Source: Candidatus Hydrogenedentota bacterium (lineage in GTDB: Bacteria; Hydrogenedentota; Hydrogenedentia; Hydrogenedentales; SLHB01). Taken from it: 64,000 bases of DNA. The DNA is taken from the NCBI GenBank assembly GCA_013359265.1, contig JABWCD010000001.1, positions 41,000-104,999 on the forward strand, written 5' to 3'. A model generated the notes under the pieces. It was not told the origin of the DNA and ran no database searches. It worked only from the letters and a program-made list of their open reading frames with translations. This document shows positions 52,702 through 61,048 of this stretch, piece by piece. The stretch's first letter is position 1. Each line of letters begins with the position of its first letter. Made by a program: the position numbers and the translations under genes.

Positions 52702-54120
52702 TTAGGTCAGGTTGTAGCCCGCCTCGTTGTGACCCGTCGTATCGAGACCTTCGGTCTCCGCCGCCTCGTCCACGCGCAGACCAACAATGAGATCAACGAC
52801 CTTGTACAGGATGGCGGACACGATACCGCAATATAGGATCGTCACAGCGCATGTAATGGCCTGTGTCGTCATCTGCGGCCCAAAGCCCGGGTACGCCGCG
52901 TACGTCCCGCCCAACGCCGGGTTCGCGAACACGCCGGTCAGCATCGCGCCGACAAGTCCGCCAACACCGTGGACACCGAACGCATCGAGCGAGTCGTCGT
53001 ATCCAAGCGCCTTCTTCACACTAGTGGCAGCGATAAAGCACACCACCGAGACTATGACGCCGATTGCGAGCGCGCCAATGGGGCCCGCGGTTCCGGATGC
53101 AGGTGTGATTGCGACAAGGCCGGCGACGGCGCCGGTGATTGCGCCCAACGCGCTCGGCTTGCCGTGCTTGATCCATTCAATCACCATCCAGGTAAAGGCC
53201 GCCGTTGCCGCGCAGATGTGCGTAACAAGCATCGCCATGCCCGCCGTGCCGTTCGCAGCCACCGCGCTGCCGGCATTGAACCCGAACCACCCAACCCACA
53301 GCATGCCGGCGCCGGTCACCGCCATCGTCATGTTGTGCGGCATCATCGGGGTCGTCGGATATCCCCTGCGTTTGCCGACCATAAGCGCGCCCACAAGTGC
53401 CGCGATTCCCGCGTTAATGTGAACGACAGTACCACCGGCGAAATCAAGCGCGCCCATGTCGAAGAACCACGCCCCCGCGCCGCCCCACACCATGTGGGCA
53501 ATCGGGCTATACACGAAGACCGACCACAGGCAGCAGAACAGCAGCACCGCGGAAAACTTCATGCGCTCGGCGAAAGCGCCGATGATCAGTGCGGGCGTAA
53601 TGATTGCAAACGTGCTCTGGAACGCGATGAACACGGTCTCCGGAATGGTGAGCGTCAAGGAATCGACCCCCACACCCTTCAAGAAAAGCTTGCCGAAGCC
53701 GCCAACATACTTGTTCATCGAGCCTGTCGTATCGAATGCGATCGAGTACCCAACGATCACCCAAAGCACCGTGATTGCAGCCGTAATCGCGAAACACTGC
53801 ATCAGGATCGACAACACGTTCTTCGACCGCACCAGGCCGCCGTAGAACAGCGACAGCCCCGGAATCGTCATGAACAACACCAGCGCCATCGAGGTCAACA
53901 TCCACGCCGTGTCACCGCTATTCAGTTCCGGCGCCGGTGCCGGTGCGGCCGCCTCTTCCGTAGCCACCTCGTCTGCCGGAGCCGCATCCGTGGCGGCGGC
54001 GTCCGCTGGCGGGTCCTGCGCAAGCGCGGGCAACGCCACAAAGGTCATCATCATCAGAAGGACCGCGACGAGCAGGCCCCCCGTTAATGTCGTCCCCAGT
54101 TTCAACCCAAACAATCGCAT
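52702..54120 (-). CDS. amt: ammonium transporter
   Basis: 11-TM Amt/MEP family, signal peptide, conserved DFAGG, twin-His region. Confidence 0.9.
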   Translation of the reverse strand: MRLFGLKLGTTLTGGLLVAVLLMMMTFVALPALAQDPPADAAATDAAPADEVATEEAAAPAPAPELNSGDTAWMLTSMALVLFMTIPGLSLFYGGLVRSKNVLSILMQCFAITAAITVLWVIVGYSIAFDTTGSMNKYVGGFGKLFLKGVGVDSLTLTIPETVFIAFQSTFAIITPALIIGAFAERMKFSAVLLFCCLWSVFVYSPIAHMVWGGAGAWFFDMGALDFAGGTVVHINAGIAALVGALMVGKRRGYPTTPMMPHNMTMAVTGAGMLWVGWFGFNAGSAVAANGTAGMAMLVTHICAATAAFTWMVIEWIKHGKPSALGAITGAVAGLVAITPASGTAGPIGALAIGVIVSVVCFIAATSVKKALGYDDSLDAFGVHGVGGLVGAMLTGVFANPALGGTYAAYPGFGPQMTTQAITCAVTILYCGIVSAILYKVVDLIVGLRVDEAAETEGLDTTGHNEAGYNLT

Positions 54121-54244: not shown

Positions 54245-54634
<390 letters not shown>

Positions 54635-54684
54635 CTAGTGGAAACGCCCGGAATGTCGTGCACGACATGTTTGACGCCCGGTAC

Positions 54685-54955: not shown

Positions 54956-54984
54956 TATTGACTTGGACGACTACTTTATGTATT
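54956..54984 (+). promoter_or_regulatory. candidate sigma70 promoter for wHTH regulator gene
   Basis: TTGACT - 17 nt - TATTCT in AT-rich spacer, about 60 nt upstream of 55044. Confidence 0.3.
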
Positions 54985-55043
54985 CTTCACCTGTTGAACG
55001 TGATATCGATTGTCATGTAACGCGGTGAAGTAGACTGCAACCA

Positions 55044-55664
55044 GTGATTGCTCTGACGGTGGGAAGAACAGCCAAATCGCCCAGGGGGAACGAAACCCTC
55101 AGCGCCCTGCTCGGCTCCGGCGCACGCGCCGAAGTGTTGCGCCTGTTCCTCATCGATCCCATGCGGGACTACTACCAGCGCCAGATCGAAGCGGCCACGG
55201 GGCTTCCTATCCGCGCCGTGCAACGCGAACTCGAGCGCCTCGCTAAGATCCGCCTTCTCTACCGGCGCAACGAAGGCAATCGCACCTACTACCAGGTCGA
55301 TACGCAGTTCCCCCTGTTTCACGATCTGCGCAGCCTCTTTCTCCGCGCCGGCGGGCCGCTCGACCGGGTCCGCGGCGACGCCGCCATCGACCCCACCGTC
55401 ATCCTGCTGATCCACAGCGAGAAGGAAAACCGGCTGCTGATGGTGTACACGGGCCGTCGCGCGCCCGAGATCGGCGCAACGGAATTGCTGCCAATGGACG
55501 CGCTGACGCGCGACGAATTCATGCTCGGACTGGCTGGTGAAGACCCCCGCATCGACGAGTTTCTGCGCACCGGCGTGGACCTGCTCGGCCGGCGGGAGGA
55601 CGTCATTTGGCGGCGCATCGAAGCCGCCGGTTACGACGTCCCGAAAGGAAAGGGTGTGGCATAG
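55044..55664 (+). CDS. winged-helix transcriptional regulator with uncharacterised C-terminal domain
   Basis: N-terminal wHTH (ARAEVLRLFL...GLPIRAVQRELERLAKIRLL); 206 aa; stop 1 nt before next gene. Confidence 0.55.
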   Translation: MIALTVGRTAKSPRGNETLSALLGSGARAEVLRLFLIDPMRDYYQRQIEAATGLPIRAVQRELERLAKIRLLYRRNEGNRTYYQVDTQFPLFHDLRSLFLRAGGPLDRVRGDAAIDPTVILLIHSEKENRLLMVYTGRRAPEIGATELLPMDALTRDEFMLGLAGEDPRIDEFLRTGVDLLGRREDVIWRRIEAAGYDVPKGKGVA

Positions 55665-55665
55665 C

Positions 55666-57099
55666 ATGCGAAGTGCGATTGACATCCAGCGCCTGTGCGA
55701 GTCGTGGTGGGAACGTCTTGCCGATTCCACCCGCGACGACCAGCACCGCTTTGCGGAGAAGTTCCTGGCCCTGCTCGGTTGGACCGACCACGACCAGGTC
55801 GAACCCGCCGCGGTGCCCGGCCTGCCCAGCACGGCGGCCTACGTCATCCGTCTGAAGTCGCACGCCCCGCTTGTCACCTACTTCACGTTGCCGGGCATGC
55901 TCGAACCACCCGCCGCCGTCGTCAAGCGCGGGCTCGACTTCTGCGAAACCACCCGCACCCTCGTGGACACCAACCGCTTCTTCAACGCCGGGTACGCCTT
56001 CGTCACCGATTTGTTCCGTTCGTATCTCTACGACGCGCGGACCGACGAACTCCTTCTTTACGCCGACGCGCCCGCGCAGTTTACGCAGGAGTTTGGCGAC
56101 GTCCTGGGCAAGGACCGCGTCGAGGCGGGTTCGCTCGACGAAGTCCGCCGCCAACCCCGCAGCTACACCGCGCGCCAACTGCGCGAATGGATTCAGCGCT
56201 GGTCCGAAACCTTGTGCGTGGACTGGCGCGCGCCCGAGGAAATCGCGTGGCTCGCGCTCGACCGTCTCGTCGCGCTGCGCTACATCTGCGAGCGCGATCT
56301 CGCGAAAAAACCCGGCTGGCAGCACGTGCAGGACTTCGAGCGCCTCATGACGCTCGCGATCAACGGCCGTTCCGAGGGCATCGGCCGCCAACTCATCGGT
56401 CTATTCACCGACGTGCACCAGGCCTGGGGCGCCGACCTGTTTGCGCCGCAGCCGCCGCTCGAAGCCACCTTCGAACAGGACGGCCTCGCCGGCCCGCTCC
56501 TGCGCGAACTGGCCCTGCTCTCGAAGGCGAAGTTCTCGATCCCCACCGTCCTCGAAAGCTTCAACTACGGCGACGCCACGGAAAAGGCGCGCGTCCGCAT
56601 GATCCCCGAGGTGAACGAGGACCGCCAGATGTACCTCGCGCAGCGCACCGCCGCGAACGTGGACGCGACGCAGATCGAACTCGACGTCGCGGACGAAGGC
56701 TATCGCGCGATCGCGCACTGGCTCGACCAACTGATCGACACGTTCGAGCGCCTCCACGTCGAATACGAAACCGCCCCGAACGTCAAACCCGCCGCGAACG
56801 AAGACATGGACCTCTTCGGCTGGTCCGAACGCGACTCGCTCGTGCCGCTCGCGTTCACGGACACCGTCCACCACGCCGCGGAGCACTGCGTCACGATCTA
56901 CTGCTCGTCCCCGCGCCAGTACCGCACCGCGCGATTGATTCTGTATCTGCACCTCGTCGAACGGTTCACCAAGTCCAGCGCGCGCTTCCACGGCTTCCCC
57001 AGCTTAGAAACCGTGTTCAAGCGCCGTCCGAACGTACTCGAAACCGATCGCCGCAGAATCTTCCAGCCCCAACGCGAAAGCGAGTGGGAAGTTATCTAA
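55666..57099 (+). CDS. hypothetical protein (477 aa), no recognisable domain
   Basis: ATG at 55666 immediately after regulator stop; coherent codon usage; C-terminal HAAEH (HxxEH-like) motif of uncertain meaning. Confidence 0.5.
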   Translation: MRSAIDIQRLCESWWERLADSTRDDQHRFAEKFLALLGWTDHDQVEPAAVPGLPSTAAYVIRLKSHAPLVTYFTLPGMLEPPAAVVKRGLDFCETTRTLVDTNRFFNAGYAFVTDLFRSYLYDARTDELLLYADAPAQFTQEFGDVLGKDRVEAGSLDEVRRQPRSYTARQLREWIQRWSETLCVDWRAPEEIAWLALDRLVALRYICERDLAKKPGWQHVQDFERLMTLAINGRSEGIGRQLIGLFTDVHQAWGADLFAPQPPLEATFEQDGLAGPLLRELALLSKAKFSIPTVLESFNYGDATEKARVRMIPEVNEDRQMYLAQRTAANVDATQIELDVADEGYRAIAHWLDQLIDTFERLHVEYETAPNVKPAANEDMDLFGWSERDSLVPLAFTDTVHHAAEHCVTIYCSSPRQYRTARLILYLHLVERFTKSSARFHGFPSLETVFKRRPNVLETDRRRIFQPQRESEWEVI

Positions 57100-57253
57100 T
57101 CCCGATGCACACCGGAGTAGCAGTACCGTGCTCGTACTCGTAGTTCTTCGCGTATTCCTCGTCAGCTTTCTCGCCTTGATCGAAGCTCCCGCACGCCCGT
57201 AATTCGGGCCGTGGATAGCATCCCGCAAAAGGAGCTCGGCCTTCTATACAATC

Positions 57254-57370
57254 TCGTGCTCATGCTCATCCTCGTGCTCGTGCTCGTGCTCGTGCTCGTA
57301 ATCGTAATCGTAATCGATTCAGTTCGAGTGTCGAGCCACGAGTACGATGACGACTCACGAGCACGAGCAC
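57254..57370. repeat. hexanucleotide microsatellite block (CTCGTG)n-(AATCGT)3 ... (CACGAG)n, potential long hairpin
   Basis: Direct reading of tandem hexamers; same composite units at 19721-19758. Confidence 0.7.
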
Positions 57371-57471
57371 GTTTTCCTCGTTATCTCTGCTTTGCTCCTC
57401 CCACCACGCGGTTGCACTTCCTCCCCATCAAGATCACAATACCCCCATTCACATCGGGGGGAACACCGGCC

Positions 57472-59923: not shown

Positions 59924-61048
59924 ATGAGAGGAAGAGTACGAGGCTTTACGCTGATCGAACTGCTCGTCGTCATCGCGATCATCGCGATTCTCGCGGCAAT
60001 CCTCCTGCCGGCGCTGGCGCGCGCGCGCGAGGCGGCCCGCCGGGCATCGTGCCAGAACAACCTCAAGCAGTTGGGGATTGTCCACAAGATGTTCGCGAAC
60101 GAAGCGTCAGAAAATCGTTGGCCGCAGAACGGTATCGACCACACGAATACCGGCTTCAACGCGACCAAGCGCATGAATGCCTACCACATGTGGAAGGACA
60201 TCATTCCCGAGTACCTGTCGGACATCAAAGTCCTGACCTGCCCGTCGCAGGGTCGCCAGGGCTTGTATGCCGCGACGGAGCTCAACAATGCCCGCAACCT
60301 GAACGCGGGTTGCGATCCGTCGATCGTCACGTATGCCACGACGAACAACGAACGCGACAATCCCTGCTTCGGCAAGACAGGCGTGACCGCGGCGGACATC
60401 GCCACCTATGGCGTCACCGGTTCGCCGCCGGCGCGCTGGTTCAATGGCTGCGACGTTCTCCCGGATCGCTGCCAGGTGCAGCCGCACACCGACCTGGTGA
60501 AGACGGGATACAATGACGTCCGCGCGTACCGTTACTTCGGGTGGGCCATCAATCCCGACTGGATGACGAACCTCGAAGACTACTGGTACGTCGGCATGCT
60601 GTACGCGAAGAATAGCTTGAGCGTCGGCGTAGAGGTTACCGGTGGTACCACCGGCACCAACATCACGCCCGCCGTTTGGTCAAACCGCAACAACGACCGC
60701 ACGTACAACTTGCCGTCCGGTAAGGTGGCATTTGTAGGCCGTCTCCGCGAAGGGCTCGAGCGGTTCTTCATTACCGACATCAATAACCCGGGCGGCAGCG
60801 CGGCGGCACAGTCCAACATCCTCGTGATGGCGGACGAGGCCCGCGCGTACAATGGTTCGGGTCAGGTGTTCGGCGGTTTGGACGGCTCTGGCCGCTTCAA
60901 CCATGTCCCGGGCGGCGTGAACGCCCTGTACATGGATGGTCACGTGGAATGGCTCAAGTATGTCACGCCGGGTGGTCGCACTTGGCACGTCAACGAGTTC
61001 GCATACAAGCGTCCGGCTGGCGTTACCGCGACCCCGGACTTTCCGTAG
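59924..61048 (+). CDS. DUF1559 family protein with canonical prepilin-type N-terminal cleavage/methylation motif and H-X9-DG C-terminus
   Basis: [36 protein letters not shown]. Confidence 0.85.

Follow-up and report, generated by a model that had tools for sequence, protein, structure and literature searches.

Within a 64,000-nucleotide stretch of contig JABWCD010000001.1 from a Candidatus Hydrogenedentota bacterium (the window, in whose numbering positions are given), we found that two open reading frames (ORFs), ORF1 and ORF2, form a real two-gene operon that is kept throughout the candidate phylum Hydrogenedentota. Comparison across the phylum makes it highly likely that this pair joins an autoregulator with a conserved operator, predicted for ORF1, to an inactivated homologue of type IIG restriction-modification (R-M) enzymes, predicted for ORF2. 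The initial annotation of the region had described an uncharacterised two-gene module, and its coordinates stand: one C separates the TAG stop codon of ORF1 (55662-55664) from the ATG of ORF2 at 55666, leaving a gap of 1 nt. It missed both the type IIG ancestry of ORF2 and the phylum-wide palindrome in the ORF1 promoter.

ORF2 gave no match to Pfam, NCBIfam, PADLOC, PHROG or the PDB sequences, and direct assignment to a family through sequence and profile libraries was discarded, since it produced only a chance COP9 match. A word-indexed search gave 261 matches with E ≤ 0.001; of the 120 listed, almost every one has a length of about 477 amino acids (aa), and the named relatives among the matches listed are almost all labelled Hydrogenedentes (an identical 477-aa protein, P0001, is annotated in a Candidatus Hydrogenedentes metagenome-assembled genome). 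An exhaustive profile search of 1.84 billion representative sequences recovered three groups, namely the ORF2 family itself, proteins of ~430-470 aa that match from end to end, and proteins of about 950-1300 aa, the first ~320 residues of which match ORF2 residues 27-292. In the long proteins Pfam recognises Eco57I, N6_Mtase, MmeI_Mtase and TaqI_C domains, with HSDR_N or MmeI_N at the N-terminus, which identifies them as type IIG R-M enzymes. Alignment of the ORF2 family with 15 type IIG proteins by hhalign gave a probability of 98.6% and an E-value of 1.1e-15 over 394 columns, running from residue 27 to 435 of ORF2 and from 30 to 500 of the template and ending before the NPPY motif; with the looser ~440-aa sister family the values were 99.3% and 1.6e-20. 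In the nuclease-like domain the block 'YAFITDLxRSYLYD' stands opposite 'KWAILTNFERLxLFNA', and in the connector the DRLLVLRYL segment of ORF2 pairs with LDRLIIIRYADD. A linker between nuclease and methyltransferase domains has been described for MmeI and PglX (PMC11341690). With an AlphaFold2 (AF2) model of ORF2 (predicted local distance difference test score, pLDDT, 89.7; predicted template modelling score, pTM, 0.87), the best Foldseek matches in the PDB were DrdV, PglX/BrxX and BsaXI; those in the viral library were an adenine methylase and an HsdR_N protein.

The catalytic motifs of the type IIG enzymes are lost or replaced in ORF2. Residues D63, E77 and K79 (D...ExK) are invariant in the type IIG homologues (n=15); the ORF2 columns opposite them hold variable residues, F-V/T-M/L-P-G and a gap, so that the PD-(D/E)xK nuclease motif is absent. 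Motif I, 'LDPACGSGSF' in type IIG enzymes, has become an invariant 'LDxxDEGYRA', which has no GxG and keeps G345 as its sole glycine; the motif II region has changed from 'LYGVDLD' to 'YxSPRQxRTARL', and ILESFNYG occupies the position of motif X. For these S-adenosylmethionine (SAM) and methyltransferase motifs we used the definitions in PMC11341690. Motif IV, [ND]PP[YFW], is absent from all 42 ORF2 family members. The target-recognition domain is absent as well, as ORF2 ends at residue 477 with no Pfam match, and the TaqI_C domain of the homologues lies at about residues 800-1000. Few parts of the family are as conserved as the blocks that stand in the places of motifs X, I and II, and this strong conservation of chemically different replacements suggests re-use of the old pocket for a ligand rather than decay. 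The HAAEH sequence, singled out by the initial annotation as HxxEH-like, is present in ORF2; it is no catalytic signature, and we rejected an HExxH-like metal site because only E406 is conserved, residue 407 varying among H, K, Q and R in orthologues. Judged by its sequence, ORF2 descends from a type IIG R-M enzyme and has become truncated and catalytically dead.

To the first ~435 residues of ORF2, type IIG/IIL enzymes (Eco57I/MmeI/DrdV-like) and PglX/BrxX are alike in order and sequence. The common parts are the LGW helix, an HsdR_N/MmeI_N-type alpha/beta domain, the helical connector (DRLxxxRY), the motif X KF...ES block and the first beta-alpha-beta of the methyltransferase fold. Unlike these enzymes, ORF2 lacks the D..ExK triad, the GxG SAM loop, NPPY, the target-recognition domain and the C-terminal region, measures 477 rather than 900-1300 aa, and is an apparently single-copy, phylum-wide protein paired with a winged helix-turn-helix (wHTH) gene. 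Thus ORF2 fails four of the five defining type IIG/PglX features yet by alignment clearly shares their ancestry; it is a relative and, on this predicted anatomy, not a member of the class.

We scanned one genome per GTDB species, which yielded 78 loci, nearly all labelled Hydrogenedentota, and counted neighbours by clustering all ORFs in them. ORF2 occurs in 78/78 loci and ORF1 lies directly upstream of it in 66/78, as compared with 20/78 for AmtB nearby, 18/78 for GlnK nearby and ≤10/78 for any other neighbour gene. ORF1 is missing from 12 loci, in six because a contig end cuts the locus and in six genuinely. In 66/67 loci the ORF2 start lies -4 to +4 nt from the ORF1 stop, which implies translational coupling. 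The pair is therefore conserved as the uncharacterised unit that had been proposed, and no characterised housekeeping family matches either protein. Each species-level genome gave one copy or fragments of one, the pair is syntenic within clades, and the ORF2 frame is intact in every untruncated locus. A 42-sequence ORF2 alignment, with identity down to 44%, retains 46 invariant columns. The ratios of non-synonymous to synonymous substitution rates (dN/dS) against the three closest orthologues, which are approximate as dS exceeds 1, are 0.08-0.09 for ORF1 and 0.07-0.12 for ORF2; by these estimates the pair is under strong purifying selection. With hundreds of full-length orthologues for each protein as well, the module goes well beyond a chance pairing of ORFs. 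As the initial annotation noted, the flanking spacers are AT-rich, with a GC fraction of about 0.48-0.53 versus 0.62-0.69 in ORF1 and ORF2. The neighbouring genes have a GC content like that of the pair, which therefore bears no compositional trace of recent transfer. No relatives were found on IMG/VR viral contigs in a pattern-limited search, and a phage origin, for which this search offered no relative, was rejected. The pair is apparently vertically inherited.

Some individual loci showed features of their own. Contigs bearing the pair in L011, L025, L030, L033, L053, L079 and others are labelled 'uncultured Nitrospiraceae/Nitrospirales', 'Candidatus Bathyarchaeia archaeon', 'FCB group' or 'Rhodothermaeota', probably as taxonomic mislabels or mis-binned contigs. 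An Mrr_cat and N6_N4_Mtase pair with an integrase (L003:323-2676) and DDE transposases (L001:11173-14363) each lie a few kb from the pair and do not recur.

ORF1 is an ArsR-like winged-helix DNA-binding protein with an extra C-terminal domain. Its wHTH spans about residues 18-110 (in the 206-aa numbering) and scored 20.5 bits (E 3e-4) against the NCBIfam model HTH_metalloreg (NF033788), which has a curated cut-off of 55 bits; Pfam HTH_5 and HTH_20 gave no match at E ≤ 1. An AF2 model of ORF1 (pLDDT 89.6) matched SmtB, AntR, SqrR and HlyU in Foldseek at E 4e-4 to 3e-3 with probability 1.0, SmtB (1smt, E 4e-4, probability 1.0) over the N-terminal half only, in keeping with the winged helix that the initial annotation had placed there. 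Of 342 matches to ORF1 at E ≤ 0.001, the best 120 are full-length relatives of about 200 aa. Among 32 aligned orthologues 36 columns are invariant, and neither these nor the columns conserved at ≥90% contain a Cys or His for a metal or redox site. The C-terminal alpha/beta domain (about residues 117-206, ~90 residues) ends in the near-invariant VDLLGRREDVIWRRIEAAGYxVxKGKGV. Taken alone it had no PADLOC or Pfam match at E ≤ 10, and all Foldseek and PDB profile matches of ORF1 were confined to the wHTH. Two candidate identities were rejected for it, a degenerate nucleotidyltransferase as in PDC-M05A, for which Pfam/PADLOC, Foldseek and PDB profile searches gave no support, and the missing methyltransferase or target-recognition part of a split type IIG gene (hhalign probability 0.7%). 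The length of 206 aa, taken from the first GTG, probably does not stand: most orthologues are 200-201 aa long and the closest (L007 and L008) have an ATG at the position of the second GTG, 55059, so the true start is probably there, giving 201 aa.

ArsR/SmtB repressors thus share with ORF1 the fold of residues ~18-110 and a palindrome overlapping their own promoter; such a palindromic operator is usual for autoregulated members of this family. ORF1 differs from them in its sub-threshold score, the lack of a conserved Cys/His site and its extra ~90-residue domain.

The upstream regions of ORF1 cannot be aligned across the phylum, apart from a 7-5-7 palindrome, TGACTAC-N5-GTAGTCA, common to ORF1 promoters. 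The candidate sigma70 promoter reported for the window was recovered by a consensus scan, and a similar one (TTGACA...GTATACT) lies 5' of ORF1 in most orthologous loci. Most loci read TTGACA-N3-4-TGACTAC-N5-GTATACT, in which the left half of the palindrome is combined with a -10-like right half; others have the full palindrome further upstream, such as ATGACTACTGTATGTAGTCAAT in L027. The best upstream site has ≤3 mismatches in 36 of 48 orthologous regions versus 10 of 960 shuffles. Sites with ≤2 mismatches number 43 in 628 kb (the 78 loci) versus about 2 expected, and all of them lie upstream of ORF1 or at its start; none occurs in the six ORF1-less loci or in loci of the remote family. The copy in the window, O1, is the sole match with ≤3 mismatches in its 64 kb (it has 3), fills the spacer between the -35 and -10 elements, and has a right half that doubles as the -10 element. 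Across loci O1 lies within or just 5' of the core promoter.

Many clades carry a second copy, O2, exactly on the ORF1 start codon, A|TGACTAC-N5-GTAGTCA|G (for example L069:1462-1480, L081:564-582 and L026:574-592). O2 spans the first seven codons of ORF1, ATG ACT ACN NNN NGT AGT CAG, which read M-T-T-x-x-S-Q. This position explains the odd N-terminal consensus of ORF1, the cis-element dictating the protein sequence. Both sites are present in 26 of 61 testable loci, the upstream site only in 17, the start-codon site only in 11 and neither in 7, so that 54 have at least one; spacings between O1 and O2 cluster near 95-108 and 144-166 bp. From this distribution, ORF1 very probably represses its own promoter via the conserved palindrome.

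Features of the locus in the 64-kb window (aa, residues of ORF2 where domains are listed)
Feature	Coordinates	Strand	Description
ORF1	55044..55664	+	GTG start, 206 aa; ArsR/SmtB-like winged helix and C-terminal alpha/beta domain
ORF2	55666..57099	+	ATG start, 477 aa; predicted truncated, inactivated type IIG/IIL R-M homologue; no curated model
Sigma70-like promoter of the operon	54958..54986	+	TTGACT, 17-nt spacer, TATTCT; consensus scan
Operator O1 (candidate)	54968..54986	strand-neutral	CGACTAC-TTTAT-GTATTCT, degenerate copy of the palindrome
ORF2 nuclease-like (HsdR_N/MmeI_N-type) domain, aa ~25-135	55738..56070	+	D...ExK gone; hhalign
ORF2 helical connector, aa ~136-292	56071..56541	+	hhalign and helices of the AF2 model
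ORF2 methyltransferase remnant, aa ~293-436	56542..56973	+	first half, gamma-class N6-adenine type; hhalign
glnK (P-II)	54245..54601	-	divergent from the pair; recurrent neighbour outside the module core
amtB (ammonium transporter)	52702..54120	-	downstream of glnK; Pfam Ammonium_transp in orthologous loci; recurrent neighbour only

In the mechanism that we propose, ORF1 would bind the palindrome as a dimer and, by occlusion of RNA polymerase, keep its own operon repressed. In the window, O1 would bring about this occlusion from within the spacer of the promoter; at loci with two sites the second would perhaps serve as a roadblock or as the anchor of a loop. ORF2 would be made in proportion to ORF1 through co-translation, and would act without its ancestral chemistry as a co-repressor, anti-repressor or signal sensor for ORF1, probably docking on the highly conserved C-terminal domain of ORF1; the sensor variant would make use of the re-tooled cofactor pocket. 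The computed isoelectric points (pI), basic for ORF1 (9.3) and acidic for ORF2 (5.3), fit a protein-protein complex and prove nothing. That the pair as a whole is vertically inherited and autorepressed, with ORF2 as a non-enzymatic partner or sensor, seems to us an evenly balanced call, and the specific role of ORF2 as partner or sensor is put forward tentatively.

Several points weigh against this proposal. Binding by ORF1, repression and the contact between ORF1 and ORF2 are predicted. The structural matches of ORF2 are individually weak (Foldseek E 0.008-0.25, TM-score <0.3); its homology to type IIG enzymes consequently rests on sequence profiles, which the structures corroborate only. The invariant acidic residues D91, D115, D123, E297, D340 and E344 of ORF2 could form a new active site, so its description as non-enzymatic stays conditional. 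The clade to which the window belongs carries O1 only, with its 3 mismatches, and has lost O2, and the palindrome copy on the start codon could act as an RNA hairpin instead. Finally, L019, L030, L040, L062, L063 and L067 carry ORF2 without an adjacent ORF1, and the remote ~440-aa relatives of ORF2 are solo genes that have no wHTH partner and lie among housekeeping genes (QueH/MnmA; QueH/OTCase/SMC; RuvX/HisD; Fur/FtsZ-FtsA-FtsQ). These solo relatives and the six loci suggest that ORF2 can function without a strict need for an adjacent ORF1.

Two of the remote relatives share a neighbour: queH lies just 5' of the ~430-440-aa proteins P0356 and P0295 (L084:6903-7409 and L089:6222-6797), and mnmA is downstream in one of the two. 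The shared queH may reflect clade synteny or hint at function.

Among other explanations, control of nitrogen metabolism, in which ORF1 and ORF2 would regulate the divergent glnK-amtB operon, is unlikely. It would account for the head-to-head arrangement of glnK-amtB and the pair, seen here and in about 20 loci, at ORF2 identities of 45-85%, which is kept even with a different amtB paralogue (31-34% identity) and extends to L019 and L040, where glnK-amtB stands beside ORF2 and ORF1 is missing. However, most loci with enough flank have no nearby glnK or amtB, the operator belongs to the ORF1 promoter and is about 270 bp away from that of glnK, with no second copy near glnK, and glnK has a perfect sigma54 promoter of its own.

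A toxin-antitoxin-like addiction module, with ORF1 as the autorepressing antitoxin and ORF2 as a toxin with a novel active site, would agree with genes that overlap or abut, with an operator overlapping the promoter, with the basic and acidic pI of the two proteins and with the invariant acidic and arginine residues of ORF2. Modules of this type are usually patchy in distribution, present in multiple copies and mobile. This pair is phylum-wide, apparently single-copy and syntenic within clades, and ORF2 is found on its own, in six loci that lack ORF1 and elsewhere as solo genes, a situation intolerable for a toxin; we regard such a module as quite improbable.

Still harder to sustain is the idea that ORF2 is the effector, and ORF1 the controller, of a functioning anti-phage defence or restriction-like system, a very unlikely reading and one close to the defence-type module envisaged by the initial annotation. 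A small autoregulated DNA-binding gene does come first, as in controller-protein (C-protein) R-M and toxin-antitoxin operons, and ORF2 descends from R-M/BREX-type enzymes. These operons are functional analogues of the pair also in having the operator over their own promoter, and the R-M-derived ORF2 is likewise translationally coupled, downstream, to a small regulator gene. C-protein R-M operons are autoregulated via a C-box by ~80-aa proteins with an Xre-type HTH, unlike ORF1 with its ArsR-type wHTH and extra domain, and ORF2, unlike the enzymes of these operons, would be unable to restrict or modify DNA by known chemistry. The wHTH of ORF1 also resembles that of the defence candidate PDC-M05A: the PADLOC profile matched at E 4.5e-18, over the wHTH at residues 18-110 only, which correspond to profile positions 5-97 of 201, and the overall lengths are equal. 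PDC-M05 is a pair of a wHTH-nucleotidyltransferase and a HEPN protein (PMC12988326), and neither the nucleotidyltransferase nor the HEPN domain was found here: the nucleotidyltransferase half is unmatched in ORF1, and ORF2 is not a HEPN protein and has no PADLOC or Pfam match. ORF2 also lacks nuclease, SAM-binding, NPPY and target-recognition motifs. The pair has apparently one copy per genome, purifying selection and a host-like composition; no mobile-element or defence cluster recurs beside it, its neighbours varying apart from glnK-amtB; and its remote relatives lie among housekeeping genes, with none on viral contigs in the pattern-limited search.

A decaying R-M gene remnant with no current function, as loss of the catalytic motifs and a length below that of type IIG enzymes could indicate, is refuted in practice by the constant length of about 477 aa among the matches listed, the invariant columns of the alignment, the low dN/dS and the intact frame in untruncated loci.

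A limited literature search brought up no account of this pair, of the operator or of a dead N-terminal half of a type IIG enzyme standing alone, and nothing relevant on R-M in Hydrogenedentes or on domesticated type IIG proteins; likewise, a limited search turned up no literature on transcription factors or operators of Hydrogenedentota.

The glnK-amtB operon was rejected as an obligatory part of the module because it is present in only about 20/78 loci; where GlnK (18/78) or AmtB (20/78) is adjacent, the loci belong mostly to clades with ≥50% ORF2 identity. On the minus strand at 54700-54685, about 84 nt 5' of the annotated glnK start, lies a perfect sigma54 promoter consensus, TGGCACAGCCGTTGCT, the sole zero-mismatch match in the window. 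A sigma54 promoter implies an enhancer-binding activator, and transcription of glnK-amtB is probably dependent on sigma54 and an enhancer-binding protein. Between this promoter and glnK, the leader contains a perfect 16-bp palindrome, ATGTCGTGCACGACAT (54653-54668), which might serve as a site for a protein or form an RNA hairpin. As listed, glnK has 118 aa and a GTG start; its orthologues are 113 aa long and open with MRK(I/V)EAIIKPFKL, and the true start is probably an internal GTG five codons downstream, near 54586.

On the 3' side of ORF2, the hexamer repeat tract reported to follow the module is real (57253-57316). The region 57253-57371 consists of CTCGTG repeated ~8 times and TCGTAA 3.5 times, with the reverse complement CGAGCA repeated ~6 times 20-60 nt further downstream, so that the interval from ORF2 to the following gene holds a long, imperfect inverted repeat, made up of tract and reverse complement, whose perfect arms measure 16 nt. 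No canonical terminator was found at this region. Further along, a 374-aa ORF (59924-61048, plus strand) opens with a prepilin-type N-terminal methylation motif; it is presumably similar to the 'DUF1559/H-X9-DG' proteins, a large paralogous family in PVC-type bacteria.

As a rule, R-M and BREX methyltransferases are regarded as defence genes that are mobile and turn over quickly. The pair described here offers a clean case of defence-gene exaptation, in which the predicted derivative, being without cutting, methylation or target reading by known chemistry, is under purifying selection and is wired to a dedicated predicted repressor with a definable operator, in an essentially uncultured phylum. 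A bolder proposal, which we hold to be rather doubtful, is that ORF2 is a phylum-wide domesticated type IIG scaffold that is now the indispensable partner of a wHTH autorepressor, its relic pocket sensing a ligand or acting in a new way on DNA or chromatin. If this were true, the related solo genes beside queH, ftsZ and ruvX would do a comparable housekeeping job, and R-M-derived proteins would gain a new functional class. ORF2 and its ~440-aa relatives have no curated family model and would merit one, and the pair provides a lineage signature for Hydrogenedentota, with TGACTAC-N5-GTAGTCA as a testable cis-element.

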